A stretch of DNA of 64,000 nt from Leptonemataceae bacterium (GCA_965227295.1 OZ245742.1:4192001-4256000); one strand, 5' to 3'. Shown: positions 20,202-35,160, counted from the stretch's first letter. Notes: generated by a model not told the origin, from the sequence alone. Numbers and translations are program-made.

Positions 20202-20280
20202 TTGAACCGGCAGCAGCTATTAGCCGCTTACTCTGAACCGATCGAGAGACGCGGAAACTTTCCTGGTATCGCAAAAAATT

Positions 20281-20790: not shown

Positions 20791-21697
20791 GTTAGTGGTT
20801 CTTATCTCTTCTTTCTTTGCATTGAATTACTGCACAACCATTTTCGGCCAAGCGGGTCAGGATGTAGCAGATTCAGGGCCGCTTTTACTACTCGCGGCCG
20901 GGCTCGGGAACATCGGAACGCCCCTGGATTTGGACGGGGACGGCACCACGGACGGCACCGCCTACGATACGAACGGCGACGGCGTCCTTGATGCCATCGC
21001 CTGGACGCTAACGCCGGGAACGGTTTCAGCTCTACTTGATACGAACAACGATGGGATTTTCGATGCCATCGACACGAACGGCGACGGAACGGCGGAGGCT
21101 CACACCTGTAGTAATACGGGGGGCCTGACTACCGGCGAGAACTGTACCGGCAGTGCCGTTAACATCGTCGCCGGTGGCCTCGACACAGACGGCGACGGGG
21201 CGGCAGACATTAGTTTTCAGACCGACACAAGTGATAGCGGTTCCTCAGGATCGGGTAGCGGAGGGGGGGCTACTCCGGCGACACCAAAATTTATCTTTGT
21301 CACTGCCGCCACATTTGGCGGAATCCTGGGGGGCTTTACCGGAGCGGACGCGCTTTGCAATGCCGACGCAAACAAGCCGAATTCAAGCACATATAAAGCC
21401 GGGCTCGCCGGTAATTCTGCTTTTGCTGCTAACCAGGAGTATACGCGGCCCGACTCAACGACCATTGGAACAACGGACGGCACGGGAAGTCTGACGACTC
21501 CCTTAACAAGTTCAATCGCCGCATCTTCGCCTGTCGAAATTTGGACCGGTGGCGATGGTACGAACTGTAGTAGCTGGACCGCGAATTCTACTTGCGGAAT
21601 TGGACTGGCCACAAGTACAACCGTGACTTTCTGGAACAACGGCAACGAGTTTGCGCCAATCTCGACGAACAACGCTCTATATTGTGTTGAGCAATAA
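20765..21697 (+). CDS. Lipoprotein with DxNGDG repeats and C-terminal DUF1554 (Len/endostatin-like) domain
   Basis: DLDGDG, DTNGDG, DTNNDG, DTNGDG, DTDGDG; KFIFVT...GILGGFTGADALC.ADANKP..YKA...IWTG...LYCVEQ. Confidence 0.8.
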   Translation: MRVIEIFTMLVVLISSFFALNYCTTIFGQAGQDVADSGPLLLLAAGLGNIGTPLDLDGDGTTDGTAYDTNGDGVLDAIAWTLTPGTVSALLDTNNDGIFDAIDTNGDGTAEAHTCSNTGGLTTGENCTGSAVNIVAGGLDTDGDGAADISFQTDTSDSGSSGSGSGGGATPATPKFIFVTAATFGGILGGFTGADALCNADANKPNSSTYKAGLAGNSAFAANQEYTRPDSTTIGTTDGTGSLTTPLTSSIAASSPVEIWTGGDGTNCSSWTANSTCGIGLATSTTVTFWNNGNEFAPISTNNALYCVEQ

Positions 21698-21711
21698 ACT
21701 ACAAGAGGAAA

Positions 21712-22182
21712 ATGTATTGCATCAGGGGCGCACGGCGTTTTTATACCGTCGTGCGTCTTGCATTTATCCTTTTTGTTTCTTTGGCTTTGTCGGCCTCTTG
21801 TCGCAAGCCAGAGTATTCGCAGCTCAGCTCACCCTCAAGAGTTAAGAGCTACCTTGCCGGTACTGCCTGGAAATGCGAGACTAGAGAGCTTACGTCTTTT
21901 CTAAGATTTTGGTCTTCGCCCCGGGGTGACAAACTCTTGTTCTCGCTCCTCCAATCGGAGCGAAACAAGCCAGGCGGAGGGCTTGTCTTAAGGGTTGAGG
22001 GGGGAACGCTAAGGCTGTACGATGACGGCTTAGTCGGCTTTTCTTATCCAGGGCGGACAGGAGAATTCACCCAACAGCGGTTCTTTGTTCATGCTTCGGA
22101 CAATAAAAAGCTTCGCATGATAAATACAAGCGTCGTGGATTGCATTCGCCAAATGACAAAGACGCCCGGTACAGTTCTCTAA
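21712..22182 (+). CDS. Hypothetical lipoprotein
   Basis: Hydrophobic segment + LSASC lipobox; W-x-C motif shared with 22188-22619. Confidence 0.55.
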   Translation: MYCIRGARRFYTVVRLAFILFVSLALSASCRKPEYSQLSSPSRVKSYLAGTAWKCETRELTSFLRFWSSPRGDKLLFSLLQSERNKPGGGLVLRVEGGTLRLYDDGLVGFSYPGRTGEFTQQRFFVHASDNKKLRMINTSVVDCIRQMTKTPGTVL

Positions 22183-22187
22183 ATGCT

Positions 22188-22619
22188 CTATCGCGTTTCG
22201 CTAAGTAGCTCCGTATTCCGAAAGCAAACCCTCTGCAATTGACCATCCGCAAACAACGTCATCTTTTCCGGCGGTCGTCCAACCAGCACGACGTCGAAGG
22301 CGCTTCCCACCGTCCCTTGATGTGCTAGCTGAAATCGGAATCCGCCGTCATGGAGCAGGACGAGAGCCTGTACGGGATTCTCCCCGCGCATTTGATCAAA
22401 AGCACGCGGCCCCCCTCCCATATCCACCGTAAGGCGGTCAGGCGGAATGTCATCCGGTGCCGAATACATCTCGAAGACCTGTCCATATTCTTCGGGACAG
22501 GTCCAATACGAACCGACAATTTCGCGCAGTTCTGTTTTCGTAGGGCTATATTCGCCGGAGCAACCAGAACCGGCAACAGTCATGACAATTAGAAAAGAAA
22601 AAAGCCGGGCATTGTTCAT
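22188..22619 (-). CDS. Hypothetical lipoprotein
   Basis: MNNARLFSFLIVMTVAGSGC signal/lipobox; convergent with 21712-22182. Confidence 0.55.
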   Translation of the reverse strand: MNNARLFSFLIVMTVAGSGCSGEYSPTKTELREIVGSYWTCPEEYGQVFEMYSAPDDIPPDRLTVDMGGGPRAFDQMRGENPVQALVLLHDGGFRFQLAHQGTVGSAFDVVLVGRPPEKMTLFADGQLQRVCFRNTELLSETR

Positions 22620-22662
22620 GATGGTAGACGCTCCGTCGCTTCTAACGTTCTGACAAGCAAAT

Positions 22663-22932
22663 TTAGCTTGAGGCTCGACACCGAACGCCCCGCCAGGCCA
22701 ACCATACCAGCAGGCCGCCGCCGAGGACGAGAAAGGGGCCATATTGATTCCAGACGTATTCCCCGGCCTTTTCCGCGCACCACTGTTTCACGGCGTCCGG
22801 CACAAGATCCAGACCGACGGTCTCGCCCGCGCCGTGAAGCCCACCGCAACCGCACGGCCGCGCCCCGGCCAGCCCGTTACGAATCCGCTGGAGCTTCTGC
22901 GCGACCTCTTCTAATTCGTTTCGCGTCTTCAT
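22663..22932 (-). CDS. Small C-terminally anchored membrane protein
   Basis: ATG 22932 with upstream AGGAG; C-terminal FLVLGGGLLVWLAWR. Confidence 0.6.
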   Translation of the reverse strand: MKTRNELEEVAQKLQRIRNGLAGARPCGCGGLHGAGETVGLDLVPDAVKQWCAEKAGEYVWNQYGPFLVLGGGLLVWLAWRGVRCRASS

Positions 22933-23506
22933 AGCGCTTGCTCCTGTGCTTAACTTTCGGCCCGGGAGTCTTGCCGGTACTCTTCGGAATCCTGGCCAGC
23001 ACCCGCCAGCCGAGAACGCCAACCACAATTACGGCCGCGATAATTCCTAGACGTTCTATCCGATCCAGGCCCCCGGTTACGTCGTCCACCGTGATGATAG
23101 GCTTTTCCGGGTCCTGGGCCTGCTCACTCAAGTACTCCGCCTTTGCCCGCTGATAATACGTCGCGAATTCGGGCGATGACTGGTAAATGATTTTGGTCGG
23201 ATTCTTTCCGTCATCATGGATGATGTACACCGTCTTTCGCATCCGCAATCGGGTTTCGTGTCGGCCGTCTACCCGTAAGACGTGCGTTCGGCCGGGACCG
23301 AAAATCAATCCCAGGCCGCCGCCCCAGTGTATCCGGGCATAATTGAAAACGCGCCAGAGATCCTTAGAATCGCCGCCGGTTATGTCCAGAAAATCAATCC
23401 CATGATCGAACGTTCCATAGTTCTTGACCGTGAAATCGGCTCCCCCGTGATCATTAAAGAATTTCGCGGCTGCGAGGGCATCGCTCGTAATTGGGCAAGA
23501 GGGCAT
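22877..23506 (-). CDS. Tail-anchored protein, possible degenerate peptidase M15-like fold
   Basis: HGIDF...WGGGLGL...HVLRVDGR parallels the neighbouring M15-like gene; C-terminal TM + basic tail. Confidence 0.55.
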   Translation of the reverse strand: MPSCPITSDALAAAKFFNDHGGADFTVKNYGTFDHGIDFLDITGGDSKDLWRVFNYARIHWGGGLGLIFGPGRTHVLRVDGRHETRLRMRKTVYIIHDDGKNPTKIIYQSSPEFATYYQRAKAEYLSEQAQDPEKPIITVDDVTGGLDRIERLGIIAAVIVVGVLGWRVLARIPKSTGKTPGPKVKHRSKRYEDAKRIRRGRAEAPADS

Positions 23507-23565
23507 TTTTAGCCTTTTCTCCCAGACGATCGCCCACAGTTTCCAGCCGACACAAGACACCCGAA

Positions 23566-24087
23566 TCACTCCACACCATACGATTCCGCCGAACGCGACG
23601 ACGCCAGCAACGCAAACACCAAAACACCCACGGCAAACACCAGCCCCCCGACCAACCACGAATCGAGCGGCGTACCTGCAGGTACTCCGTAAACCGGCCG
23701 CAACCGATCGAACCAGGCCCCGGTCAGCTTCGTAACTTTCACCGGCCGGGATTTAGAGAGTTCCACAAAATAAAACGGCGACGGCCGCGCGTCTACGTGT
23801 AAGTGACGGTCGGCCGGGGGATAGCCGAGGGCGACACCACCGGGCCAGCTCGTAGCCGTGAGCCGTCGCGCGACGTGCCACAACGTTGCCCGGCAGCGAT
23901 CGTCCGCGGCCGGGCACCCGAAATCCACCGCGGCGCGTCGACCATGAAAACCGCTATCCCCGCGGTCGGTCGACGTCACCGGGAGATCTCCGCCGCCGGC
24001 GCGCGTTACCGCCCGGATGATTTGACGCTGCGCCGGTGACAGTGCGGCGAAGCGGGCGCGGTCCTCGAGTACGTCGCGAGCCTTCAT
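23566..24087 (-). CDS. Peptidase M15-like (LAS) metallopeptidase with C-terminal TM anchor
   Basis: VTSTDR, SGFHGRRAAVDF (H-x6-D), GGVALG, HLHVDAR (HxH). Confidence 0.75.
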   Translation of the reverse strand: MKARDVLEDRARFAALSPAQRQIIRAVTRAGGGDLPVTSTDRGDSGFHGRRAAVDFGCPAADDRCRATLWHVARRLTATSWPGGVALGYPPADRHLHVDARPSPFYFVELSKSRPVKVTKLTGAWFDRLRPVYGVPAGTPLDSWLVGGLVFAVGVLVFALLASSRSAESYGVE

Positions 24088-24088
24088 A

Positions 24089-24430
24089 TCATTTCCCGCG
24101 CATGATCGAAATTAATAACGCCGCCGCCAGGCCCACGGTGACGATCGCCAGAGCGTTCCGGTGGGGCTGGTAGATCGTGCGGTCCGGATTGAACCGGAGG
24201 CCGTCCACGGGCGCACGCACGGAAACGAACCCGGCCGCGCGGGCAACGTCGCGGGCTTCCTCCACGCGGTCCGCGTCTACGAAGACGTACGAAGGATCAA
24301 ACGAAAAGAAGTCTATGCCGCGTGTTTGTAATTCTTCCCGTACGCCTAACATCTTCGCCTGTGTCGCCGCGTCGCGCTGCGATGGGTAGAGATCCAGGAA
24401 AACATACTGCGGGCTTTGAATGATTGGCAT
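24089..24430 (-). CDS. Small C-terminally anchored membrane protein
   Basis: MPIIQ start with AAAGG RBS; C-terminal ALAIVTVGLAAALLISIMRGK. Confidence 0.65.
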   Translation of the reverse strand: MPIIQSPQYVFLDLYPSQRDAATQAKMLGVREELQTRGIDFFSFDPSYVFVDADRVEEARDVARAAGFVSVRAPVDGLRFNPDRTIYQPHRNALAIVTVGLAAALLISIMRGK

Positions 24431-24434
24431 GATG

Positions 24435-24896
24435 TTACCTTTTCTTTCTTTTGCCCGACCGCGAAGTCTGACCGCCGAAGGCCCCGGACGCCCACAGCAC
24501 AAAACCACCGACCGCCAGACCGCCCAGAATCAAAGCGACCGGCGGGCCGTCGTCCGGTCGCTCCGGCGGTTTGACGGGGTTTACAAAGATTTCCGGGGGC
24601 GGTCGCCAGTCCGGATCGATCGCCCCGGGCTGCGGTTTCGGGACGGGATCAGACGCGACCACCACCGGGGACGGCGCGGGCGGCCGCACGGGTACAGGGG
24701 CCGGAGCCGTGCCGGGGATCGCCAGCACCAGGCCCGGCCAGATCGTATACGGCGACCGGTTCTGAAATGTATACACCCGCGAGCCGATGCGCACCGTACG
24801 CCCGTGGTTCGCGCGGGCGATTTCCGGCCAGCGCACTCCGTAGCGTGCGCCGATCCGTGAAAGTGTATCCCCTGATCTAACTGTATATTGAATCAT
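24435..24896 (-). CDS. LysM-domain protein with Pro-rich linker and C-terminal TM anchor
   Basis: YTVRSGDTLSRIGARYGVRWPEIARAN...TIWPGLVLAIP. Confidence 0.9.
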   Translation of the reverse strand: MIQYTVRSGDTLSRIGARYGVRWPEIARANHGRTVRIGSRVYTFQNRSPYTIWPGLVLAIPGTAPAPVPVRPPAPSPVVVASDPVPKPQPGAIDPDWRPPPEIFVNPVKPPERPDDGPPVALILGGLAVGGFVLWASGAFGGQTSRSGKRKKR

Positions 24897-24897
24897 A

Positions 24898-25290
24898 TTA
24901 GTACCATGCCCCCGCCGGAAACGCCTGGACGCGCTGCCCGAAGGCGGCGACCTGGAGCTTTAAGCGTTTGATTTCATCGTCTTTCGTCTGCGCCCGCTGC
25001 TTGCACTTTTGCAGCTCCTCCCAAATGTTTCGCATTCCCCGTTCGGTCTGAATCGTCGTGGATGCTACCTGTTGCCGGGCCTGTTCCTGGGCTTCGGCCA
25101 CCTGTTGTTTGGCCTGCTCTTTAAGTTGTTCCCGAAGCTGTTTCGCTTTCCGGATTTCTACCTGTAGCTCCTGGCCCTGAGCGTTAACGTCGCTCATGGC
25201 CTGATTGAATTCCGTTTGCTGACGGTGCGACTCCGCCATGCCCTGAGCCGCGCTTACCAGATCAAGAATCAGTCCGATGGGAAAAGACAT
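24898..25290 (-). CDS. Coiled-coil hypothetical protein
   Basis: Q/E/K-rich heptads; tight coupling to neighbours. Confidence 0.65.
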   Translation of the reverse strand: MSFPIGLILDLVSAAQGMAESHRQQTEFNQAMSDVNAQGQELQVEIRKAKQLREQLKEQAKQQVAEAQEQARQQVASTTIQTERGMRNIWEELQKCKQRAQTKDDEIKRLKLQVAAFGQRVQAFPAGAWY

Positions 25291-25309
25291 AACTTTACAT
25301 CACACTGAC

Positions 25310-26257
25310 TTAGTACGAATAATCCCATTCGAGCATAACCAGGCCCGACGCCGCACTGACGCTGGACGTGCCCGGTACGTATTCATCGCCCCCGTTCCCG
25401 CCCTTGCTCCCGGCACCGAACGTCTGATACGGCGCGGCCCCACCGTTCGAGCCCTCGCCGCCGGATGGGCCGACCGGAGGCTGCCCGCCGAACCGCGCAC
25501 CCCCGCTACCGCCCGGGGCGGTAGCCAGCGCCCCGAAGGACGACGCGCCGCCGGGGTAGCCCGTCGTTTGATTGGCAACACCCGGCCCGCCCGCGCCGAC
25601 CGTTACCAGGTAGGTGGCCCCGGGAACCAGTGAGACCGGGATTTCAACCAGTCCTCCGGCTGCGCCTCCGCCGCCACCGGCACCGCCGCCGCCGTCATCG
25701 CCGTTCTCACCACCGGCGCCGCTCCCGCCGCCACCCACACAGCGCAACGTAATTTCAAAATCAAGGCTCGCCGGACAGAGGAAAGAATGTGTCCCCGGCG
25801 TGGTCCACAGCACGACGTCGTTAGGGTACAGGGAACGTAAGATTAACTTCTTAGTTTGCAGCTCCTGGCCTTCGCTTAACGACGAAGCTTCACCGCCGGT
25901 CGCCGTGACGATCGAACCGTCAAGACCGACGGCGAGAAATTCGCCGATATGCAACAGCGGCGCGGCGATGGAAACATCATCCAGGTCATAAAAACCATCG
26001 GGTTTCGCTAGTAACGCGGCCAGGTCGGCCTTTAGATCCAGTTCAAGTTGTAAGTCGTGAATGTCGGCTATATCATGTAAGTGAATCGCATCCGCTTTCG
26101 CGGCCAGCTCCGTTTCTAACGAAACGATGTCCGGGATACTGTGCGCATGGCCCAGGGCGGCCTTGTTCTGTAGCTCCGACTCCAGCCCCTCGATGTCCTG
26201 GACCTGGAACAGATCCGCGAAGTCCCGCGCTTCGATGCGTTCACCGTTCGCGGGCAT
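25310..26257 (-). CDS. Fibre/spike-like protein: phage-tail H-x-H repeats + glycine-rich C-terminal domain
   Basis: DIEGLESELQNKA / HAHSIPDIVSLETELAAKA / HLHDIADIHDLQLELDLKA; then TPGTHSF...VGGGGSG...GGGGGAAGG...PGATYLVTVGAGG; TGATG coupling at 26257. Confidence 0.75.
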   Translation of the reverse strand: MPANGERIEARDFADLFQVQDIEGLESELQNKAALGHAHSIPDIVSLETELAAKADAIHLHDIADIHDLQLELDLKADLAALLAKPDGFYDLDDVSIAAPLLHIGEFLAVGLDGSIVTATGGEASSLSEGQELQTKKLILRSLYPNDVVLWTTPGTHSFLCPASLDFEITLRCVGGGGSGAGGENGDDGGGGAGGGGGAAGGLVEIPVSLVPGATYLVTVGAGGPGVANQTTGYPGGASSFGALATAPGGSGGARFGGQPPVGPSGGEGSNGGAAPYQTFGAGSKGGNGGDEYVPGTSSVSAASGLVMLEWDYSY

Positions 26258-26913
26258 CAGTACGCCCCCGCGTTCAAGAAATCCGGTAATTGATGGTTGT
26301 ACGCCTCGACGTCTACCTCTATGACGAACCGGACCCGGGTTGATGCGTAAACTTCCGTTTGCTTCAGGCTTGCCAGATACGGTATGAGTGCCAGATAGCC
26401 GCCGCGCGAATAAAACGGCAAATCCAGGCTTGCGGCGTATGTCGTCCCCTGGATCATTAACCCTTCGTGAAATTCTTCTAAATTGTTTATGAAACCGTAC
26501 GCGCTCCACTCCGGATAATACGCCGCGTCCGCCAGACGATAGCCGATCCGAAACGGGAAACCCCGGTTTCGCGCGTGGGGAGAGACGAGCAGTGTTTCCG
26601 GAAATCCCGTGTAGCTGGAAAGGAGCGGCGTCTCCGGCGCGTACAGGATTTCGGCCCCCTGGTCGAAATGCGCGGCGAATCGCTGGTACGGCTGGCCGGG
26701 GAGACTGACCAGGGCCAGCGTTACCGGCGTGTCCAGCGCCGTCTGTGAGCGGAAGTAATGGGCCTGGTTTAGAAACGACCGGATACGTAGGTACACGTTC
26801 TGCGGCACTTCCGCCAGGCCGATGGAAAACGTTTCACTGTACAGATCGTTCGCCGCATCGTACGATTGCGAAAACACCACCTGTTGACTGACTGTTTCGA
26901 CGACCAGGCCCAC
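26257..26913 (-). CDS. Hypothetical beta-rich structural protein (vertex/penton candidate)
   Basis: Lies between the capsid candidates and the fibre; alternating hydrophobic strands. Confidence 0.5.
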   Translation of the reverse strand: MGLVVETVSQQVVFSQSYDAANDLYSETFSIGLAEVPQNVYLRIRSFLNQAHYFRSQTALDTPVTLALVSLPGQPYQRFAAHFDQGAEILYAPETPLLSSYTGFPETLLVSPHARNRGFPFRIGYRLADAAYYPEWSAYGFINNLEEFHEGLMIQGTTYAASLDLPFYSRGGYLALIPYLASLKQTEVYASTRVRFVIEVDVEAYNHQLPDFLNAGAY

Positions 26914-26916
26914 AAC

Positions 26917-27315
26917 TTACCCCGTGGTTTCGCAGATCAGCAACACCGATACGCCCCGGGCCGGGACGGCATATGCAAAGGTTTGCAGGTGCATTTCCAT
27001 TTCGCGCCCGTTCGGCCAGGTGAGCGGACGGATCTTTTGAAAGACCCGCTCCATATCGCGCGGCGCTCCAATCTGACTTAACTCGACCGCGTCCTGAAAC
27101 GTAAGATTCGACGCGTTCGTACCCTGGGGTTTCAGGGCAAAGAGCACGTCGTCAAACACGGTGGGTGCGGCCGGTTCCGGATAACGCACGACCAGCCCGA
27201 TGATCTCCAGGGTGTGGCCGCTCTGGTTCGTGCGTGTGCCGACCTTGCCGAGTGTAGCCGACGCGCTGACCGGGTTATCGTTCACGATGCGATAGAGCAG
27301 AGTTTCGCGGGCCAT
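26917..27315 (-). CDS. Candidate small capsid protein (single jelly-roll-like size and pattern)
   Basis: 132 aa; strong GGAGG RBS; about eight short alternating beta strands; no TM. Confidence 0.45.
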   Translation of the reverse strand: MARETLLYRIVNDNPVSASATLGKVGTRTNQSGHTLEIIGLVVRYPEPAAPTVFDDVLFALKPQGTNASNLTFQDAVELSQIGAPRDMERVFQKIRPLTWPNGREMEMHLQTFAYAVPARGVSVLLICETTG

Positions 27316-27336
27316 GCCTTAACCTCCGGTCGTCGT

Positions 27337-28017
27337 TTATTTGCGGGCCGGTTGCGAAGCGTGGTCCATGCCGCGCAAACGTAACCGCACAAAGTGGTCA
27401 TTCAACGAAGCGGGAAAGTTAAAGCCCGCCGCCTCGAATACCAGCGACATTGATTGATCCGAGTTCCGCCAGTCCGGCGAGAACTTGAATTCGTACGGGT
27501 ACGCCACATTGGAACGCGGTCCCGCGAGCGCTGCCGAGGGCGTCGGCATGAGCACGGCCACTCCGGCCGCGACATCCAGAGCATTCCCCGGGTCTGTCTC
27601 AACCTGGTGAGGATAGAAGACCCAGGGCAAAGGCCCCGTGAGATCCACGGCCGACGACCAGTCGAGCAACTGTGACGTATCGCGGATTAACTTCACGTAC
27701 GCCCGGTTGACGACTTTCGCCCAGTCGTTGAACCGGTCCATGAAAGTGGCTCCGCCGGTCGGGATGAATGCGCCGCCGTCCTCGCCGATGATGTCCAGGA
27801 CCATTTGCACGGCGCCGCCGATGCCCGTTTGCCAGGCATTGTTCCCGTTGGTGCGGTAAGATGTATCCGCACCGAGTTGTTCGGCCTGGCCGTCAAAGAA
27901 GTTGATCTTTGCCGGTTGCCCGCCGGTGATTCGTTTGATACTGACCAGCGTGTGCGGATACGCGCCCACATCGTAGGGCGACCTCCGCCGGGGTCGATTC
28001 GGTCCGCTTCCGTCCAT
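27337..28017 (-). CDS. Candidate major capsid protein
   Basis: AGGAG RBS before MDGSG (alternative in-frame ATG at 28050); beta-strand pattern KINFFD, VQMVLDI, AYVKLIR, YEFKF, MSLVFE, FVRLRLRG; follows the basic and membrane protein genes. Confidence 0.45.
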   Translation of the reverse strand: MDGSGPNRPRRRSPYDVGAYPHTLVSIKRITGGQPAKINFFDGQAEQLGADTSYRTNGNNAWQTGIGGAVQMVLDIIGEDGGAFIPTGGATFMDRFNDWAKVVNRAYVKLIRDTSQLLDWSSAVDLTGPLPWVFYPHQVETDPGNALDVAAGVAVLMPTPSAALAGPRSNVAYPYEFKFSPDWRNSDQSMSLVFEAAGFNFPASLNDHFVRLRLRGMDHASQPARK

Positions 28018-28050
28018 AGTCTTCGCTCCTGAGTTATGTTCGCCGTACAT

Positions 28051-28641
28051 TTACGCGGCGTAATAGTCGTAGTAATCGCCGGGGTCGTCGTCTCCGTGTA
28101 AGAGTTCGTCGAGTTCCGCCGCCTTCTCATGGCGATACACGGGATCGCCCCGCATTTCGTAATCGTCTTCCGGCATGGGCAGCGCTCCGCTCTCTTCCTC
28201 ACGCAAAGCCTCCAGCATTTCGCGGCGCTGGTCGCCGTCCGCCAGCGCCCACGCGAGCGCGAGCATTTGCCGGGGGTCCTGGATTTCGGCCTGGGCTGCG
28301 GGCGGCCCGGCCAGCTGGCCGGTAGCGCTGGCAACGGCGGGAAAGCCCATCGCCGAGAACCCGCGCGGCAGACCATAGGCCAGCGTACCGATGAAGACAC
28401 CCGCGATAGCCGGGGCAATCCAGGCATTGTCTTTGTAGGTCTTCGAGTCCAGCCGGTCGCCGATCAAAAGCGCCCCGACACCCAGGGCCGTAGCCAGACC
28501 GGGCCGGACCCAGGGCGTTAGCTTGCTGCCCTCTAAGAATTCCTCGCCGATCTTGCCGAGACTGTGCGTGAGCCACATACCGCCGAGAGCCGCGCCGCCC
28601 GCCATGACCAGGCCGAGTTTGTTCGTCTGTACATCACACAT
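28051..28641 (-). CDS. Membrane protein with three Gly/Ala-rich hydrophobic segments and an acidic tail
   Basis: LGLVMAGGAALGGMWL, GLATALGVGALLIG, WIAPAIAGVFIGTLAYG; D/E/Y-rich C-terminus. Confidence 0.7.
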   Translation of the reverse strand: MCDVQTNKLGLVMAGGAALGGMWLTHSLGKIGEEFLEGSKLTPWVRPGLATALGVGALLIGDRLDSKTYKDNAWIAPAIAGVFIGTLAYGLPRGFSAMGFPAVASATGQLAGPPAAQAEIQDPRQMLALAWALADGDQRREMLEALREEESGALPMPEDDYEMRGDPVYRHEKAAELDELLHGDDDPGDYYDYYAA

Positions 28642-28642
28642 T

Positions 28643-28894
28643 TCATCGCCTCCGGGCTTTCGCCTTTTTCTTCGCTTTCTTCTTCGCGCGTTTCTTCGTG
28701 GTCTTCTTACGCGCTTTCTTCCTGGCCTTTTTCTTGACTTTCTTCTTCGTCTTCTTTTTGACCTTCTTCTTAACTTTCTTTTTCTTCTTTTTAGCGCCCG
28801 CCTGGGCCGCTTTCTTGATGGCGTTAAATTTACTTTCGGTCATGCACACCTGCTTTTTGCGTATGCCGGAACTGAATAGACTTCCTAACATCAT
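28643..28894 (-). CDS. Lysine-rich histone H1/protamine-like protein
   Basis: KKKKKKVKKKVKKKTKKKVKKKARKKARKKTTKKRAKKKAKKKAKARRR; fits exactly between coupled neighbours. Confidence 0.8.
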   Translation of the reverse strand: MMLGSLFSSGIRKKQVCMTESKFNAIKKAAQAGAKKKKKKVKKKVKKKTKKKVKKKARKKARKKTTKKRAKKKAKKKAKARRR

Positions 28895-28902
28895 CGTACT
28901 TC

Positions 28903-30318
28903 CTATTTGGATTTTCCCCGCATGGCGATGGCGAGCACGGCCACCCCGACCAGGGCCGCGCCGCCGATATAGACGGCGGTCTTAGGAATTCCGCCGATCG
29001 TGTCCGACGCCTTCGCCGGGGGCGGGGATTGCAGCATAACGCGCGGCATCCCACCCGGCCGGGGGGCCGGGGCCACGTAGACGCGCGGCCGGGCCACCGG
29101 CGCGGGACGCGGAGCCGGGCGCGGTGCGGGCCGGGGCCGCGCGAACTGTAACGCCGTCCTAAGCAGCTGCTGGCGTTCGCGGGCCTTGCGGGCCGCATCG
29201 GCCCGGCGTTTCGCGCTCATTTGCTGCGCGATTTGCAGCGGATTGATTTTGCCGATGAGCGAACCGATGCCACCGCCGGAGGCGAGGCCGGGCAATAGCG
29301 ACGAAAGACCGCCCGCCGCCCCGGCCGCGCCGGTGATGCCCGGCACCACCGCGGCGAGCGCGGGCAGAAAGCCCAGCTCGCCCGCCAGCGTCCCGGCGGC
29401 GAAACCGTAGAGCGCCGCCGCGCCGGGATCGTCGTAATAATAGCTCTGTTGCCCGTAGCCCGTATCCGCGTAGGGATCGCTGTAATACGGGTCTTTTGCG
29501 GCGTAGGAATCGGCGTACGCGTCGCCGTAGGGATCTTCCGCGTACGGATCGTATCCGTACGGGTCTTCCGTCATCGCGTAAGGATCTTCAGCCATACCGT
29601 ACGGGTCTTCGCCCATGCCGTAAGGATCTTCCGCCGCGTACGGATCTTCGCCACCGCCGGGCATCATACCATCCGCGCCCGGCATCATCGACGTAGCGGC
29701 CTGGAGCACTTCGCCCGCGCCTTCCGCGATGCTCGAAACGAACTTGCCCGCGTCCTGGCCGATGTTTGATACAAACTTGCCGTAACCCTTCGCGGCGTGG
29801 CTTACGCCTTTACTCAGATCTTTAAAGCCCCGGGAAAGCGGTTTCGTTACGTGATTCAAGTTGACTTTCGGCAGCTTGAATTTGGGTAACTTGAATTTCG
29901 GAAGCCTGATTTTCGGTAACTTGAACTTAGGTAGTTTCAAATTCATTCGAAACTTGCCCAGGCCCTTAAACGCCTTCCCGAAATTGAACTTTGGGAGCCT
30001 CATCTTGAATCCTTTGAACTTGAACGCGTTTCCGAAGGACTTACCGAGAGAGAACCGGCCGAGTTCTGCGCCGGAGAGTTCGTCTGTAATGACCAGCGTA
30101 TCGGGAAACCAGGTGCCATCGATGGGCGTGTCATCGCCCGCCAGCGTCCACTGGTTCACGTCATCGACGACGTAGTCACCTTCTAACGATACCGCGACGT
30201 GCTCGGGCAGACCGTCGTAGAAATCGCCCCACATTTGCACGGCTTCGCCGTACAGTGTGTGCGTTTCATGGGCGCGTAAGTCGTCGCCGTGGAGTTCTAA
30301 GAGTGCAACCACGCGCAA
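28903..30318 (-). CDS. Modular low-complexity protein (KLPKF repeats, EDPY repeats, RPAP repeats, C-terminal TM)
   Basis: 471-aa ORF, TTG/GTG start, internal repeats visible in protein and DNA. Confidence 0.75.
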   Translation of the reverse strand: MRVVALLELHGDDLRAHETHTLYGEAVQMWGDFYDGLPEHVAVSLEGDYVVDDVNQWTLAGDDTPIDGTWFPDTLVITDELSGAELGRFSLGKSFGNAFKFKGFKMRLPKFNFGKAFKGLGKFRMNLKLPKFKLPKIRLPKFKLPKFKLPKVNLNHVTKPLSRGFKDLSKGVSHAAKGYGKFVSNIGQDAGKFVSSIAEGAGEVLQAATSMMPGADGMMPGGGEDPYAAEDPYGMGEDPYGMAEDPYAMTEDPYGYDPYAEDPYGDAYADSYAAKDPYYSDPYADTGYGQQSYYYDDPGAAALYGFAAGTLAGELGFLPALAAVVPGITGAAGAAGGLSSLLPGLASGGGIGSLIGKINPLQIAQQMSAKRRADAARKARERQQLLRTALQFARPRPAPRPAPRPAPVARPRVYVAPAPRPGGMPRVMLQSPPPAKASDTIGGIPKTAVYIGGAALVGVAVLAIAMRGKSK

Positions 30319-30419
30319 AAGTTAATACTATCGCGCGGGGTTTGTATAGCGGGAAATGGGTTAGTGTGTGGGGATTGGCCGCTACGTGTCCGGGTGGTGG
30401 CAGCAAAAACAATACTATT

Positions 30420-30815
30420 TTAGTGCCGGGGAAAGAACCGCCATTCTTGCTCTTGTCCTGAAGTATGCCGTGGTTGCTCTTGTACTTCACCGGGTTGCAC
30501 GAAATATGCACCGATTACATACGATGCAGCTACAGAAGAAAGAAAACCGACAATAAAACTAACCGTAAGCGATGCGAAATAGCCGATGGTCTTCTGCCAC
30601 CACTTCGGTTTAAACTCAGGAAGCCAAGTTACATTTCCGCATGACTGACACCTGACCCTTGAGCCCGCGTTGTGGTCTGTGATATTAAAAGTTGCCGAGC
30701 AATTGTCGTTTGGACACGGCATCACCCGGATGGTCTCAACCTGAGGAGAGCCCCCCACGATGTCAGGAATTATTGCGCCCATAAACAGTCTCCCTAACTT
30801 GCCTGAACTGTCCAA
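30420..30815 (-). CDS. Zinc-ribbon membrane protein
   Basis: CPNDNC...CQSC followed by a TM helix; AT-rich. Confidence 0.55.
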   Translation of the reverse strand: MDSSGKLGRLFMGAIIPDIVGGSPQVETIRVMPCPNDNCSATFNITDHNAGSRVRCQSCGNVTWLPEFKPKWWQKTIGYFASLTVSFIVGFLSSVAASYVIGAYFVQPGEVQEQPRHTSGQEQEWRFFPRH

Positions 30816-31300
30816 CGCTTAACTAGCCGATCGAAACCTGCGTAGACCTCCATGCCTCCGTGGTGTTCGCGCAGAAAGTGGATTATTGGCCCGTGACTCT
30901 TGTGTAATGAGAGCACGGCTCTTTGAAAGTATCTCGCGAGGACTTCCTCGTCGGCAGTTCGGTTTTCAATGGCCAGGGAAACCATTTCCAAATAATTGAG
31001 AACCTCCGTAGCGGCACGGTATGACCCTTTGTATGTTACTATCGCATCTGTGGGATCATTATTAAACGCTAGTAAGAAGAGCGGTTTTACTGACAGCTGT
31101 ACGCGTTCTATATACTCTGGCCCGGTCCATTGCCGGATGTAGTCCATAGCATTTTCTCGTTTCTGAAAGCGTAGATTCCTTCTATGTGCCACGATAAGGA
31201 CGCCGGGAATTAACAAGATGGACAATATTTGCGCAATCTGTATCGTCAGCTCGATCAAATCCATTCCAACCCCTCCCGAATATGCCTCAGTAAGTTTCAC
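30794..31300 (-). CDS. DUF4760-like membrane-anchored protein
   Basis: N-terminal TM; VLNYLEMVSLAIE...DEEVL..YF...F..L..RW; AT-rich. Confidence 0.6.
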   Translation of the reverse strand: MKLTEAYSGGVGMDLIELTIQIAQILSILLIPGVLIVAHRRNLRFQKRENAMDYIRQWTGPEYIERVQLSVKPLFLLAFNNDPTDAIVTYKGSYRAATEVLNYLEMVSLAIENRTADEEVLARYFQRAVLSLHKSHGPIIHFLREHHGGMEVYAGFDRLVKRWTVQAS

Positions 31301-31354
31301 ATTTTAGGCATTTCTAAGTAGGTCAAGCATCTTACGAGACTACCTTGACTTCAT

Positions 31355-31543
31355 TTAAGGGCTTTGCAGGGATTTTTCCTTCTTTATTCGACGAACGGTC
31401 CGTTCTGAAATATTTATTGAACCCATCCATGGAAAATCTGGGTCACCTCGTTTAAAGAAGGAAACAACGTCAGGAGCCTGCCAGCCTTGGCTAATTAGCT
31501 CCCTAATCTTTTGTCGCACAGGTTCAGGTATCCGCCGTCCCAT
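31355..31543 (-). CDS. Small helix-turn-helix protein
   Basis: RQKIRELISQGW...DVV...NISERTVRRIKK; GGAGG RBS. Confidence 0.7.
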   Translation of the reverse strand: MGRRIPEPVRQKIRELISQGWQAPDVVSFFKRGDPDFPWMGSINISERTVRRIKKEKSLQSP

Positions 31544-32018
31544 AAAAAACCCTCCGAAACTCTTCATCATACAGGCGCCCCCCAAACACACACCGATCAT
31601 CATACGTTGCATCGGTGGGCACCCAGGCCCCGCCTAACTCAATCTCAGGATAAACATGATGAGGCCCGGCCCCCGGCCGTGTGCCGACACACGCCAGCCG
31701 CGAGCGCAGTCCTTTCAAAAACGCAAACGCTAAAAGTAAGATGGCCTTGTCGTCACAATCCCGCGCAAACGGCCAGTCTGGCCGGACGGTGTAACGCGGG
31801 CGGGAAAGCATTTCCACGCCCGGCGGATCGGCGTGATACTTCAACCGCCGGACGTGGTTATAAAACTCCTCGAAAGACAGGTGAGCAAACGGGAGCAAAT
31901 CGGCGGCGTAGCGCCGCGCCATGTCGAACATACGCGCGACGGTAATTTCATACGACGCCAGGTCCTGCGTAAGCTTCGCCTGAATCGAAAGCAGGGTGTC
32001 ACGCAGGGAGTTAATCAG
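31524..32018 (-). CDS. Transglutaminase-like cysteine protease (start uncertain)
   Basis: Y..DP.G.E, RDCDDKAILL (Cys), HHVYPE (His), WVPTDAT (Asp). Confidence 0.8.
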   Translation of the reverse strand: MINSLRDTLLSIQAKLTQDLASYEITVARMFDMARRYAADLLPFAHLSFEEFYNHVRRLKYHADPPGVEMLSRPRYTVRPDWPFARDCDDKAILLLAFAFLKGLRSRLACVGTRPGAGPHHVYPEIELGGAWVPTDATYDDRCVFGGRLYDEEFRRVFYGTADT

Positions 32019-32301
32019 ACACCCCCGGCGCACGGCCCGGCTGGAAGATTTGCAGGCGGGCGAGACGTTCCCGCATCCGCGCGACGTGGTCAGAAATATC
32101 CCGGCCGGACAAGACCAGGCCGAAAGCGCGTTCCAGGTTAAACAGGATGGCTTCCACTTCCTGCACATCGCTCACGATGGTTTCCGCCGCTTCCGCGTAG
32201 TACTTCATAGCCCGTTCCAGGGCTTCGACGCGCTCCGCGAGATCTTCCGGCGCATCCCCGGCGACCGCCGCCGGAGTAGGCTGATTACTTGCATCATTCA
32301 T
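32011..32301 (-). CDS. Small helical hypothetical protein
   Basis: TAATG coupling to the upstream gene; amphipathic helices. Confidence 0.6.
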   Translation of the reverse strand: MNDASNQPTPAAVAGDAPEDLAERVEALERAMKYYAEAAETIVSDVQEVEAILFNLERAFGLVLSGRDISDHVARMRERLARLQIFQPGRAPGVSD

Positions 32302-33071
32302 TATACAGGCTCCTGACCGGCCGGAATCCCGGCGGGCGCACCCTGCGCCGCCGCCAACCCCTGGCCGCTAAGTATCTCTCGAATCGTTCCCAAATTACGC
32401 AGGACTTCGCCGCCCAGGTCCAGGCCCCGATAAAACATCCGTTCCCCGGGCGTCTGGTTCTCCGTGGACAGACGGTCAGACTGGCGTTTTAGATCGTGGT
32501 CGTGTTCCTCGTGCAACCGATCAATCCGCCGCTCATAAGACCGGCGCATCTCGTCCATATCTTCGCGGATCAAAGTCAGGCTGCGTTCATGGCCTCGCTG
32601 TAGATCCTCAAACATGGTGCGAAACGTGCCCTGCATCGATTCCATCATCATTTTCATGGAAGCGGTAGCGGCGTTGTCCCGGATCTTCTGCGCCTCATCC
32701 AGCTTGTGTTCCATCTTTTCCATGTAGGTAAAGGCACGATTGAGTACGGTCTGTTCGGTAGGATCGGGGAACGGAGAGAGCGCCGCCGCGCCCCCTCCGT
32801 TCTTCCCGTTCTTCGCGGCGGCGCTGTTGCCGTGCATCGGCCGCGTGACCTGGCCGGAGAAAACCCGCGTCCAGTCCTTATCCTTCTCGCCCCGGGCGAA
32901 CAGTTCCACGGTGTATTCCCCCGGCTCCAGGTCCGGCAGATCCGGGCTATGGAGTTCTACTGCGTCCATACCGGCGCGATGGATGCGCAAACGGTAACGC
33001 GCATCCTCGCCGTATTCCGATTTGATGCGCGACGCCTCTTTAAGAAATTGTTTGAGAGTAAACTTTAACAT
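32301..33071 (-). CDS. Hypothetical protein with beta N-terminus and long coiled coil
   Basis: AGGGAG RBS directly after the integrase; 256 aa. Confidence 0.65.
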   Translation of the reverse strand: MLKFTLKQFLKEASRIKSEYGEDARYRLRIHRAGMDAVELHSPDLPDLEPGEYTVELFARGEKDKDWTRVFSGQVTRPMHGNSAAAKNGKNGGGAAALSPFPDPTEQTVLNRAFTYMEKMEHKLDEAQKIRDNAATASMKMMMESMQGTFRTMFEDLQRGHERSLTLIREDMDEMRRSYERRIDRLHEEHDHDLKRQSDRLSTENQTPGERMFYRGLDLGGEVLRNLGTIREILSGQGLAAAQGAPAGIPAGQEPV

Positions 33072-33077
33072 GTTAAT

Positions 33078-34181
33078 TTAATCTCCCTTTTTCCTTTTGC
33101 TCATGTCTTTTTTCGCGTGAGGCCCCCGTGTCGATGACTTGCGTGAAACGTTAGAGCGGCGACGCCCCTTCTTTTGCTCCTCGCTGTACACCATTCGTCG
33201 TAGCTCTGCACAGGACGGGACGTCCGAAGCCTTTAAAGATCCTTGTTGATAAAACTGGATAAACGTTTGTACGTTTCGCCAGCCGCCGTGTTTCATGATG
33301 GCCGGGAGCATTTCCGGGGAGGCATTGTAGAACCATTGCGCAAACGCGTGCCTGAATTTGTGCGGGGAAAAGTGCGTCCCATGTCCAAATACTTTCCGGC
33401 ACGCCATTTTACAGCGGAATAAGGCGTGATGACGGTCAAACGGAGTCCCGTCTGTCTTCTCGAAGAGAAATACCTTGCCTTTGAAAACCTCGCGGATGCG
33501 TTTATAGACGTCGTAGCGCAATTCCCGCGTGTCGATGCTCCCCCCCTTTTGTCGGACGGTGTAGTAAATACCGCCGTCGGGCGTTAGGTGATCGGTATTG
33601 AAATCGGACAGTCGGAGGGAGCACAGTTCGCTGATGCGTAGGGCACTGAACAAAAGAAACTCGATCAGGGCGGAGTCGCGTTCCAGCGCTTCATCGATTA
33701 ACTGCATGACCTGTTTTAGCGTGGGGACGATGATTCGGGCCGGTACACGCTTGAGTGAGGTCCACTTCTTAAAGGTCCGGTCGATTGTGGTTTGCAGCGC
33801 GAAATCGAGATCGTATGCGTCCCCGTAGTAGCTGATAACGGCCCCCTTGAATTGAAACGCCACGTTACGGACTGTTTGGGGCTTGTAGCGCTTTAGATGC
33901 TCTTCCAGGTACGCTGTAATATCCTGCAAGGTCATCCCGTTCGGATGTTTGGCGTTAATTTTCCGGAGATTGGAGTTTTCCGCTTTTTTCCGGGTCAAAG
34001 GGAGCCGGGGAATCACCAAACCCGAATAGTAGTCTAGAAGATTCGTCGCGGAAAATGCACCGGCTGACGCGGGCGTGTCGGGATTCCGGACAATTTCCGG
34101 CCCCTTAAAATCCTTAAACTTTTTTCGTTTATATTGAATAAACGAAACAACATTTGATGTTTCCATACATACAGCGGACAT
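33078..34181 (-). CDS. Tyrosine recombinase/integrase
   Basis: SALRISEL (R), QKGG (K), PHKFRH (HxxR), KHGGW (H/W), TFIQFY (Y); adjacent to attR. Confidence 0.92.
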   Translation of the reverse strand: MSAVCMETSNVVSFIQYKRKKFKDFKGPEIVRNPDTPASAGAFSATNLLDYYSGLVIPRLPLTRKKAENSNLRKINAKHPNGMTLQDITAYLEEHLKRYKPQTVRNVAFQFKGAVISYYGDAYDLDFALQTTIDRTFKKWTSLKRVPARIIVPTLKQVMQLIDEALERDSALIEFLLFSALRISELCSLRLSDFNTDHLTPDGGIYYTVRQKGGSIDTRELRYDVYKRIREVFKGKVFLFEKTDGTPFDRHHALFRCKMACRKVFGHGTHFSPHKFRHAFAQWFYNASPEMLPAIMKHGGWRNVQTFIQFYQQGSLKASDVPSCAELRRMVYSEEQKKGRRRSNVSRKSSTRGPHAKKDMSKRKKGD

Positions 34182-34242
34182 ACTATTCCCCTGAAACCGG
34201 CAAGGGAAAAAACACTTGTCAGCCGCTTACTATATTTACTAG

Positions 34243-34372
34243 TTACGCAATTGCGGAGCCCGGAGTAGCCCGGCGCCCGGCCGGCGGAATTGAGCGACGC
34301 GCCTTGCGCGTCGTCGGGTTCACAAGTCGCTACGACCGCGACTTGTGCGCGGCCCGGCCGGGCGCAACGCCC
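34243..34372 (+). other. attR: element arm TTACGCAAT + core GCGGAGC (34253-34259) + 3' half of the REP-like repeat
   Basis: CCGGAGTAGCCCG after the core matches the intact repeat at 50089-50101; ends AACGCCCAAA like other copies. Confidence 0.8.
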
Positions 34373-34670
34373 AAAGAAATCTCACTGGTCCCCGCTTTCG
34401 AGTGACTTTTTCAGCAGCCTGCTAACGCAAGAATTGATAGTCTACAGTCGCTCCGTCATCCTTGAGCGGCCTTTTTAGCCGGCCCCTCCTGGTGCGCTAA
34501 GCCCACGGAGGGGCGCTGCACACCAGGACGTGTGGCCTGCGCCGTACGCGACTGATTCTCAATTTCGACGTGCCTGTGGTCCTGGCGGCATAATCTGGTG
34601 GATCGCACAAACGCCGTGCAGTTGATTAATGTCGGGTCATCTTCCACAGACTTGTACAAGGAGTAACAAC

Positions 34671-35042: not shown

Positions 35043-35066
35043 TCACAGGTTAAGATTCAGAACGGC

Positions 35067-35102
35067 AACGGCCGCGTTCGGGAAACCGGCGCGGCCGTTT
35101 TT
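35067..35102 (+). terminator. Rho-independent terminator
   Basis: AACGGCCGCG...CGCGGCCGTT stem followed by a T run after HiPIP. Confidence 0.75.
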
Positions 35103-35160
35103 GTGTAATGAGCGGTGCGATCATCGGCGCGCTTCAAAGCCACAGCCTGAAGGAGTCTGC

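Follow-up and report, generated by a model that had tools for sequence, protein, structure and literature searches.

A compact run of small genes on one strand of a bacterial chromosome raises the question of whether it encodes a virus and, if so, of which kind. The locus lies within a 64,000-nucleotide stretch of DNA (the window), which is bacterial chromosome, with dnaE, dnaG, cysS and leuCD present. The host is probably a spirochaete, as suggested only by sub-threshold NCBIfam matches in the window (a BB0259-type flagellar transglycosylase and an LBF_0142 lipoprotein) together with DUF1554.

The original prediction had placed a single minus-strand virion module at 22663-33071. Translations and per-codon-position GC showed that this block is real, a continuous series of open reading frames running from 33071 to 22663 with 19 closely spaced, co-directional genes, all with intact frames (Table 1). 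From the junction of the integrase with g1 to that of g18 with g19, 15 of the 19 junctions were overlaps or gaps of at most 21 nt and the remaining four were 33, 59, 90 and 185 nt, counts that depend on the chosen start codons (those of g3, g7, g18 and g19 are uncertain). Genes g7 to g17 had GC3 values of 0.63-0.77 and GC2 values of 0.36-0.58. A rival open reading frame at 27693-28427 was rejected as a shadow frame with an inverted GC pattern (0.48/0.75/0.67).

The integrase gene was left out of the original prediction and falls outside its interval. It opens the co-directional block, ending 6 nt before g1. Its product matched the tyrosine recombinase (phage integrase) family PF00589 with an E value of 1.1e-16 (61.5 bits; cut-off, 27.1) and phrog_1 (integrase) at 1.5e-23, and was XerA/XerC/XerD-like below the NCBIfam cut-offs. 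With the integrase, the island spans 22663-34181, about 11.5 kb on one strand. Neither att repeats nor a tRNA target was found at the island flanks, where the best match was 11 nt (about 0.8 expected by chance). The tetranucleotide usage of the island (0.171) was at the upper edge only of that of the host segments (0.103-0.174; 19 of 20 segments lower). A search of 185,579 representative genomes returned no relative. The island is most likely an undescribed temperate tailless virus in its integrated form, with a genome that is complete or nearly so.

Table 1. Genes of the island, listed from the integrase to the last gene of the block
Gene	Length (aa)	Position	Strand	Description	Evidence
integrase	367	33078..34181	-	Tyrosine integrase	PF00589, phrog_1
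g1	256	32301..33071	-	N-terminal domain and long helical/coiled-coil part	Translation
g2	96	32011..32301	-	Acidic (pI 4.6), helical	1-nt overlap with g1; no family found
g3	about 169	31524..32033	-	Start uncertain	Translation
g4	62	31355..31543	-	Basic (pI 10.9), low GC (0.46)	Translation
g5	156	30794..31264	-	DUF4760 protein, N-terminal TM segment, low GC (0.48)	PF15956
g6	120	30420..30782	-	Zinc-ribbon-like N terminus and one TM segment, low GC (0.50)	Profile, hydropathy
g7	about 443	28903..30234	-	Modular repeat protein	Translation; DNA repeats
g8	83	28643..28894	-	Extremely Lys-rich C-terminal tail	Translation; repeat family D1
g9	196	28051..28641	-	Membrane protein	Hydropathy
g10	226	27337..28017	-	Candidate single-jelly-roll capsid protein, short basic N-terminal arm	Family, AlphaFold model, Foldseek
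g11	132	26917..27315	-		Translation
g12	218	26257..26913	-	Acidic	Homologues; 1-nt overlap with fibre gene g13
g13	315	25310..26257	-	Fibre/spike: phage-tail-repeat region and glycine-rich C-terminal domain	Pfam, PHROGs
g14	130	24898..25290	-	Coiled coil	Translation; coiled-coil noise matches only
g15	153	24435..24896	-	N-terminal LysM, Pro-rich linker, C-terminal TM anchor	PF01476
g16	113	24089..24430	-	Tail-anchored	TM 94-110, KD 2.61
g17	173	23566..24087	-	Tail-anchored	TM 145-161, KD 2.82
g18	about 209	22877..23506	-	Membrane-anchored, basic tail	TM 155-171
g19	89	22663..22932	-	Tail-anchored, last gene of the block, start uncertain	Hydrophobic segment 67-83, KD 1.66

As predicted from the sequence, Pfam and PHROGs recognised no terminase, portal, HK97 capsid, tape measure, sheath, Zot or conjugation family, the sole exception being a low-complexity tape-measure match in g7 (E = 1.5e-4). 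The terminase, portal, HK97-fold capsid and tail genes of a Caudoviricetes prophage were absent from the 19 block proteins in these searches, and the Caudoviricetes-type signal in the block consisted of the fibre domains and the tape-measure match only. The same searches returned no F-type capsid or HUH Rep family, as in the Microviridae, and no Zot-type ATPase with a tiny coat protein, as in the Inoviridae. No Rep or P-loop ATPase was found in the block by Pfam, PHROGs or a Walker-A search, which in six frames across 21000-35500 gave four pattern matches, none within an ATPase-like open reading frame. Only three block proteins exceeded a curated Pfam cut-off: the fibre protein g13 (PTR and Gly_rich_2), g15 (LysM) and g5 (DUF4760).

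Since no replication or packaging gene is encoded, the island may be defective or non-viral. A non-viral integrative island, or the decayed remnant of a mobile element, would encode cell-envelope proteins and no virion of its own; the absence of a recognised capsid family, the flanks without att sites or a tRNA target and the composition near that of the host all fit this reading, whereas the operon-like tight packing and the intact frames argue against it. Alternatively, a satellite or helper-dependent element with its own capsid and fibre genes could depend on another virus, or on the host, for replication and packaging, which would suit a structural set that appears complete while those genes are absent. 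However, no helper was recognisable within the window, and none of the known satellite hallmarks (primase, small terminase, capsid-size redirectors) was detected in Pfam or PHROGs; we regard a satellite as very improbable.

The glycine-rich fibre named in the original prediction was borne out, with g13 matching PF12789 PTR at 1.3e-11, PF21722 Gly_rich_2 at 9.2e-11 and 12 PHROG families, all tail or fibre except three (best, phrog_863 at 2.7e-22). We propose that g13 is the receptor-binding protein. If the island were non-viral, this fibre would instead be adhesin-like, beside LysM and membrane-anchored envelope proteins; its phage tail-fibre domains speak against that.

The last five proteins were tail-anchored, as had been claimed, with one C-proximal hydrophobic segment each (KD17 1.66-2.82), and hydrophobic segments with KD17 of at least 1.6 were present in 9 of the 19 block proteins, which are thus predicted membrane proteins. 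The LysM domain of the tail-anchored g15, omitted in the earlier annotation, matched PF01476 at 1.4e-10 and the LysM part of the endolysin family phrog_380 at 1.6e-9; its TM segment is at 120-136. An H-x6-D ... H-x-H pattern in g17, read by eye, was reminiscent of LAS/M15 zinc peptidases, and profile and PDB searches gave no match for this protein. BLASTP aligned g17 weakly with g18 (25% over 104 aa, E = 0.02), and g18 is possibly a diverged paralogue of g17.

Among the upstream genes, g1 gave coiled-coil-type noise only, with no family above cut-off and no PDB relative, and could be a scaffold or a replication-associated protein. A Cys...His-His...Asp pattern is visible by eye in the g3 translation; its original label of Cys protease found no match in Pfam, NCBIfam, PADLOC or the PDB, and no profile matched the HTH label of g4, which is possibly a regulator of that type. 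The probable accessory gene g5 matched PF15956 at 8.4e-19 and phrog_2284 at 3.3e-8, and g6 matched Zn_ribbon_4 below cut-off (E = 0.0042). The modular repeat architecture claimed for g7 was supported by DNA repeat families D3, D4 and D14. Its modules are KFKLPK repeats, EDPYG repeats, an Ala/Gly-rich hydrophobic stretch, RPAP repeats and a C-terminal TM anchor, with TM segments at 287-303 and 421-437 and a weak low-complexity match to phrog_33360. The Lys-rich character of g8 was likewise confirmed (pI 12.0), and we propose that this protein may condense the genome. The g9 protein has one to three hydrophobic segments and is acidic in its C-terminal half (pI 4.4); no family was found for it.

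The family of the candidate capsid protein g10 is tiny. It numbers about ten in 15 billion proteins, and its members come from two genomes and from contigs of 1.2-30 kb. The distant members are of the same length class (214-224 aa); they come from contigs measuring 1.2-6.6 kb and from the second genome, of 4.73 Mb. We take g10 as the probable conserved hallmark of a very rare family. Three contigs, of 5.94 Mb, 7,039 bp and 29,857 bp, each carry homologues of both g10 and g12. The presence of the pair on the 7,039-bp contig, and of the g10 relatives on the shortest contigs, argues against a non-viral island.

Profile, PDB and phage-genome searches gave no similarity for g10, g11 or g12. The AlphaFold model of g10 was of low confidence (pLDDT 51.1, pTM 0.51; 118 of 226 residues below 50), and Foldseek returned zero matches at E ≤ 1e-3 in the PDB or BFVD. 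Nevertheless, viral single-jelly-roll coats dominated the list, as 34 of the 36 PDB matches listed (best E = 0.046), among them coats of ssRNA viruses and of Sulfolobus polyhedral virus 1 (SPV1). The best BFVD match had a probability of 0.93 (E = 7.2e-3), and 19 of the best 50 listed were named capsid, coat or readthrough proteins. In contrast, the equally poor g11 model gave unrelated folds. These matches weakly point to g10 as a single-jelly-roll capsid protein, and the capsid assignment of the island, which draws on this weak structural model, is correspondingly tentative. That the capsid call depends on a model of pLDDT 51, none of whose matches reaches E ≤ 1e-3, lends some weight to a non-viral or decayed island, but almost all the PDB matches listed were viral coats, which weighs against it, and we consider such an island unlikely, though a serious contender.

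The neighbouring proteins were less telling. A single-sequence model of g11 had low confidence (pLDDT 48, pTM 0.36) and was mixed alpha/beta rather than beta-rich as originally labelled; it showed no jelly roll, as an uninformative model, and its Foldseek matches were heterogeneous, none at E ≤ 1e-3. Pfam and further profile searches found no family for g11, and one may speculate that it is a penton or second capsid protein. By hhalign g12 was unrelated to g10, and searches of the PDB, Atlas and phage sequences gave no match; we propose that g12 could be a vertex or fibre-base protein.

The original prediction had read the 226-aa and 132-aa proteins as the large and the small member of a vertical single-jelly-roll capsid pair that covers an internal membrane, as in P23-77 and SH1 (Helvetiavirae). 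P23-77, SH1 and SNJ1 (Matshushitaviridae, Sphaerolipoviridae and Simuloviridae) are small viruses that lack a tail and contain an internal membrane; some of them are temperate or occur as integrase-flanked proviruses. For an internal membrane in the island virus, the nine predicted membrane proteins give indirect evidence only. Their adjacent small capsid genes are followed by many small membrane-protein genes, comparable to the two adjacent genes of unequal size in the island, and the g10 jelly-roll signal fits here too. However, the packaging ATPase belongs to the conserved sphaerolipovirus core (PMC5332951), and the island has no counterpart of this FtsK/HerA-type enzyme (ORF13 in P23-77). 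The hhalign probabilities of the g10 family profile against P23-77 VP17 and VP16 were only 0.15 and 0.10, tblastn of 21 island proteins against the P23-77 genome gave a best E value of 0.19, and no P23-77-, SH1- or HHIV-2-type capsid protein was among the Foldseek matches listed for the g10 model; nor was the low-confidence g11 model a jelly roll. Because the packaging ATPase and VP16/VP17 similarity are absent, the P23-77/SH1 reading fails a defining test, and we regard it as highly doubtful.

Corticovirus PM2 and related double-jelly-roll proviruses resemble the island in genome size (about 10 kb), in often being integrated in bacterial chromosomes and in having a single structural operon with capsid, spike and many tiny membrane proteins. 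However, PM2 has a 269-aa double-jelly-roll capsid protein (P2), an ATPase (P9) and a replication initiator (P12), none with an island counterpart. The island has no P-loop of an A32/FtsK-type ATPase and no PM2 rolling-circle initiator, g10 (226 aa) is shorter than P2, and the best tblastn E value against PM2 was 0.063.

A further alternative is a pleomorphic, enveloped virus resembling plasmavirus L2 or the pleolipoviruses. Its virion would be a membrane vesicle with the fibre and tail-anchored proteins, and g10 would be a matrix or nucleoprotein and not an icosahedral shell. Acholeplasma phage L2 (Plasmaviridae) is a temperate membrane virus of similar size and content: its circular genome of 11,965 bp has DnaA-box origins and encodes envelope proteins and a site-specific recombinase, and neither a replication protein nor an ATPase is annotated in it; the nine membrane proteins, the Lys-rich g8 and the missing packaging ATPase of the island also suit such a virus. 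However, L2 is enveloped and pleomorphic without a shell protein, whereas the g10 model resembles shell-forming jelly-roll coats. No similarity to L2 proteins was found at E ≤ 0.1, and spirochaete cells possess both a wall and an outer membrane, while the L2 record names a wall-less host. A pleomorphic virus is improbable in our estimate.

The jelly rolls of SPV1 are tangential, and we know of no packaging ATPase in this virus. As for a relation to the VP4/VP10 shell proteins, the SPV1 matches to the g10 model (PDB 6oj0_A, rank 5, TMq 0.33; BFVD VP4, rank 21) were weak, with E values of 0.19 and 0.11 and TM scores of 0.31-0.39. According to PMC8459092, the shell of portogloboviruses is made of jelly-roll proteins, with an inner membrane and a nucleoprotein core, and replication proteins are not recognisable. 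Like the proposed island virus, SPV1 (Portogloboviridae) has a single-jelly-roll shell, an inner lipid layer that contains many membrane proteins and DNA condensed by a basic nucleoprotein (PMC8459092). On the other hand, SPV1 has a hyperthermophilic archaeal host, a circular dsDNA of about 20 kb and a T=43 shell, whereas the island lies in a bacterial chromosome and is about 11.5 kb; the resemblance is at the level of the weak Foldseek matches. The island is also integrase-led and integrated, a state that the available text of PMC8459092 does not describe for SPV1.

The broader claim of a tailless membrane virus stood in part: an integrase-associated island with a phage-type fibre, many membrane proteins and the g10 jelly-roll signal weakly supports it, but the P23-77/SH1 type was not supported. 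Our preferred explanation, at just short of an even chance, is a new temperate tailless virus whose capsid is built of jelly rolls, which has many membrane proteins and a Lys-rich protein to condense its DNA, and which packages its genome without a motor. In this virus, g10 would form the capsid shell, as a single jelly roll with a short basic N-terminal arm, g11 to g13 would provide the vertex and receptor-binding fibre, and g8 would neutralise and condense the DNA. Proteins g7, g9 and g15 to g19 would belong to a virion-associated lipid membrane and may also bind or cut the cell wall at entry and exit (LysM in g15; a possible zinc peptidase in g17/g18), with g1, g2 and g14 as putative coiled-coil assembly factors. 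Because no P-loop ATPase and no replication initiator are encoded, the genome would rely on the host machinery for its replication and become enclosed through condensation and co-assembly instead of being pumped into a preformed shell. Such a mode would be closer to that of the archaeal portoglobovirus SPV1 than to that of P23-77, PRD1 or PM2.

Translation together with per-codon-position GC revealed an unbroken series of minus-strand ORFs from 33071 down to 22663, in a window with a G+C content of about 58 to 61%. The block comprises 19 genes, numbered g1 to g19 in that order, and the third-position G+C of 0.63 to 0.77 in g7 to g17 indicated that those frames are coding. A long overlapping ORF at 27693-28427 had an inverted codon-position GC pattern and was rejected as a shadow frame. 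The original prediction had listed the genes accurately; its chief omission was a tyrosine integrase, which lies on the block's own strand with a 6-nt gap from its end to the first block gene. Since the integrase is 6 nt from g1 and on the same strand, the unit that needs explanation is the island at 22663-34181, about 11.5 kb. When start codons were picked by Shine-Dalgarno context (those of g3, g7, g18 and g19 being uncertain), 15 of the 19 junctions from the integrase to g19 were overlaps or gaps of at most 21 nt.

We then searched the block proteins for recognizable families. Pfam and PHROGs identified no terminase, portal, HK97 capsid, sheath, Zot or conjugation family, as had been claimed from the first inspection, and no Rep or polymerase family. 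A six-frame Walker-A search of 21000-35500 for a packaging ATPase returned four pattern matches, none of them in an ATPase-like ORF. To our knowledge, few families of bacterial tailless membrane-containing viruses have been described, and every one of them carries a packaging ATPase.

A curated Pfam cut-off was reached by 3 of the 19 block proteins (g13, g15 and g5). The Gly-rich fibre protein g13 had matches in 12 PHROG families, most of them for tails or fibres (best phrog_863, 2.7e-22); its PDB sequence matches were Gly-Ser linker artefacts. A segment with KD17 of at least 1.6 was present in 9 of the 19 proteins, and each of g15 to g19 had one C-proximal hydrophobic segment. The Lys-rich protein g8 (83 aa, pI 12.0) has a tail of almost pure lysine. 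Weak similarity between g17 and g18 (E 0.02) centered on an H-x6-D ... H-x-H-like pattern that, in our own motif reading and with no profile match, is reminiscent of LAS/M15 zinc peptidases. No paralogues within the island were detected at E ≤0.05. The labels "Cys protease" for g3 and "HTH" for g4 found no support in Pfam, NCBIfam, PADLOC or PDB sequences and are motif readings. PADLOC gave a weak coiled-coil match and nothing else among the island proteins, and PDB sequence searches with g10, g12, g1, g3 and g17 produced no meaningful match.

Features of the island and of its chromosomal surroundings
Feature	Positions	Strand	Evidence and remarks
BB0259-type flagellar lytic transglycosylase (Borrelia BB0259-like)	9910-12450	+	NCBIfam 1.9e-45, below cut-off
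ECF-type sigma factor	19662-20201		
352-aa protein			Overlaps sigma factor; possible anti-sigma protein (own reading, with sub-threshold cupin match only)
DUF1554 protein	20567-21697		Three repeats spaced 105-111 nt (repeat family D6)
Lipoprotein-like ORF	22188-22619		
g15			LysM above Pfam cut-off
g13, fibre			Phage-tail-repeat domain PF12789 and glycine-rich domain PF21722
Low-GC trio g4-g6	30420-31543	-	g4, basic, 62 aa; g5, DUF4760 and TM; g6, zinc-ribbon-like and TM
g5			DUF4760 above Pfam cut-off
Tyrosine integrase	33078-34181	-	PF00589 E 1.1e-16; phrog_1 1.5e-23
LBF_0142-family lipoprotein (Leptospira)	42293-43165	+	NCBIfam 1.7e-30, below cut-off

The 226-aa protein g10 and the 218-aa protein g12 had just two other relatives each among 5.8 billion clustered proteins, and these share the same two contigs (7,039 bp and 29,857 bp). 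Five more distant g10 relatives, 19 to 26% identical and all 214 to 224 aa long, came from searching 1.84 billion representatives with a profile, and a profile-seeded word search added two further ones, one of which lies on a 4.73-Mb contig representing a second genome; the remaining distant relatives are on contigs of 1.2 to 6.6 kb, among them contigs of 6,579 bp and 3,394 bp. The 537-aa protein P0012, with tandem repeats of about 80 aa, matched g10 at E 8e-4 in six stretches, was judged a low-complexity false positive and was left out of the g10 alignments. No related locus was found among 185,579 representative genomes. In tblastn searches of the INPHARED phages, g10 and g12 had no match at E ≤1, g13 had none at E ≤1e-3, and g11, the 132-aa protein, had a single match (E 0.9); blastn with 26000-33100 against the same phages also found no match. 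PLSDB plasmids had no match to g10, and the ESM Atlas gave no usable match for g10 or g12. By hhalign, g10 and g12 had no detectable paralogy, and neither g11 nor g12 had a profile relation to g10.

To explore the fold of g10, a model was built from an 8-sequence alignment. The model was poor (pLDDT 51.1, pTM 0.51), with seven strands, a central helix and residues 121-187 unmodelled. Foldseek against the PDB, in which no match reached E ≤1e-3, placed viral jelly-roll coat proteins in 34 of the 36 matches listed, the other two being TasA. The coats were from luteoviruses, bromoviruses, tymoviruses, picorna-like viruses, Sulfolobus polyhedral virus 1 (SPV1; TMq 0.33), PBCV-1 and SGIV. In BFVD, the best match was the unnamed UniProt entry I1ZBH9 (E 7.2e-3, probability 0.93), and 19 of the best 50 rows were named capsid, coat or readthrough proteins, with SPV1 VP4 at rank 21. 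The model of g11 was equally poor (pLDDT 48, mixed alpha/beta) and matched kinases, ribosomal proteins, SPFH domains and phage tail parts. Since an equally poor model yielded such unrelated folds, the jelly-roll signal of g10 is not general to bad models. Members of the g10 family also share a short positively charged N-terminal arm, and an arm of that kind occurs in many jelly-roll coat proteins. That g10 is a jelly-roll capsid protein has, in our estimate, roughly even odds.

The borders and composition of the island were also analyzed. No tRNA or Rfam feature was found, and direct-repeat searches for att-like sequences gave no more than one 11-nt exact match, AGCCGCTTACT, at 34221, where it precedes the start of the integrase by 40 nt, and at 20222, where it precedes that of the sigma factor by 21 nt. 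This match is at chance level, about 0.8 such being expected in the compared regions, and was therefore not taken as an att site. A promoter/terminator scan gave no signal higher than in shuffled sequence. The tetranucleotide usage value of the island was 0.171 versus 0.103 to 0.174 for 20 host segments, 19 of which were lower; a value at the upper edge of that range does not make the island a clear outlier. The g4-g6 trio, with a G+C of 0.46 to 0.50 versus 0.59 to 0.65 in its neighbours and bounded by 90- and 185-nt gaps, looks like an accessory insert, and no PADLOC defence family was matched in it. A non-viral or decayed island, favoured by the lack of att sites and the near-host composition but disfavoured by the phage-type fibre domains and the coat-protein matches of g10, is a rather unlikely reading, though the likeliest of the alternatives.

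PMC5332951 lists a pair of capsid proteins, one major membrane protein and the packaging ATPase as the conserved sphaerolipovirus core. The P23-77 gene for this ATPase, ORF13, is found two genes upstream from VP16/VP17. No ATPase is encoded in the island. The hhalign probability of the g10 profile was 0.15 with P23-77 VP17 and 0.10 with VP16, the best match of any island protein to the P23-77 genome had E 0.19, and no P23-77- or SH1-type chain was among the Foldseek matches listed for the g10 model. The P23-77-like design with two vertical jelly-roll capsid proteins that had been proposed at first is not supported by these results, and a member of the Helvetiavirae is now highly unlikely; the wider proposal of a tailless virus keeps partial support. 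The corticovirus PM2 and the plasmavirus L2 likewise had no sequence relation to the island, and an L2-like virus, enveloped and pleomorphic, for which the many membrane segments may be cited, is improbable beside the jelly-roll matches of g10.

The nearest described analogue of the combination proposed below is SPV1, an archaeal portoglobovirus, in the sense of working like it rather than belonging with it. In PMC8459092, SPV1 is described with VP4/VP10 as jelly-roll proteins, a membrane on the inside, a nucleoprotein core of VP1 and no recognizable replication proteins. The Charybdis preprint (10.1101/2025.08.03.668216) describes a different element, archaeal and 4.6 kb. The literature search, which covered few subscription journals and so does not prove novelty, found, for spirochaetes, only papers on tailed phages and no report joining jelly-roll or tailless viruses with this phylum.

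We propose that the island is a temperate element that would integrate via its tyrosine recombinase and express one long structural operon. The g10 protein would build a small shell, g11 to g13 would form the vertex with a trimeric-looking host-binding fibre, and g8 would neutralize the DNA. The modular repeat protein g7, the membrane protein g9 and the tail-anchored g15 to g19 may reside in a virus-associated membrane, binding or cutting peptidoglycan at entry or exit. Since neither motor nor initiator is encoded, replication would be left to the host, and encapsidation would proceed through condensation and co-assembly. A helper-dependent satellite, a reading suggested by the same missing genes in an island with its own shell candidate and fibre, is in our estimate very improbable.

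The flanks of the island are chromosomal, with LeuCD, HiPIP and GNAT proteins on one side and the ECF sigma factor, possible anti-sigma protein and DUF1554 protein on the other; dnaE, dnaG and cysS lie farther out. The BB0259-type and LBF_0142 matches, with DUF1554 (above its cut-off) as a third spirochaete-type hint, hint at a spirochaete host. A low-GC stretch (about 0.51) adjoins the island at 17979-22619 and contains the sigma factor, the 352-aa protein, the DUF1554 protein and the lipoprotein-like ORF. Elsewhere in the window, a 201-aa minus-strand ORF at 2641-3246 matches eukaryotic actin: residues 27-159 align with positions 4-129 of the 410 in the Pfam Actin profile (E 8.4e-25), and residues 28-162 with residues 7-139 of PDB actins (E 2.5e-26). 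With an N-terminal signal-peptide-like segment and a weak NCBIfam "syringactin" match at its C-terminus, it is a truncated actin-like protein, possibly secreted, on a bacterial chromosome.

Taken together, our best reading, with a likelihood somewhat short of even, is of a tailless and membrane-rich element that is virus-like and has a probable jelly-roll protein. The fuller proposal is more doubtful: that the island founds a new family, possibly a taxon of higher rank, of temperate viruses of bacteria, with a small icosahedral single-jelly-roll shell lacking sequence relation to known capsids, a protein-rich lipid membrane, a histone-like Lys-rich core protein and motor-free genome enclosure. 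Such a virus would be the bacterial equivalent of the portogloboviruses of archaea, and the spirochaete phylum would have its first known tailless virus. If not viral, the island is just another orphan genomic island; a real virus would be a new variation on the theme of tailless jelly-roll viruses. An ATPase-less bacterial jelly-roll virus would broaden the known assembly strategies and link bacterial viruses to the archaeal oddity SPV1. The g10 family could then be used to search for a virus group missed by current hallmark-gene pipelines, and spirochaetes would gain a new kind of mobile element.
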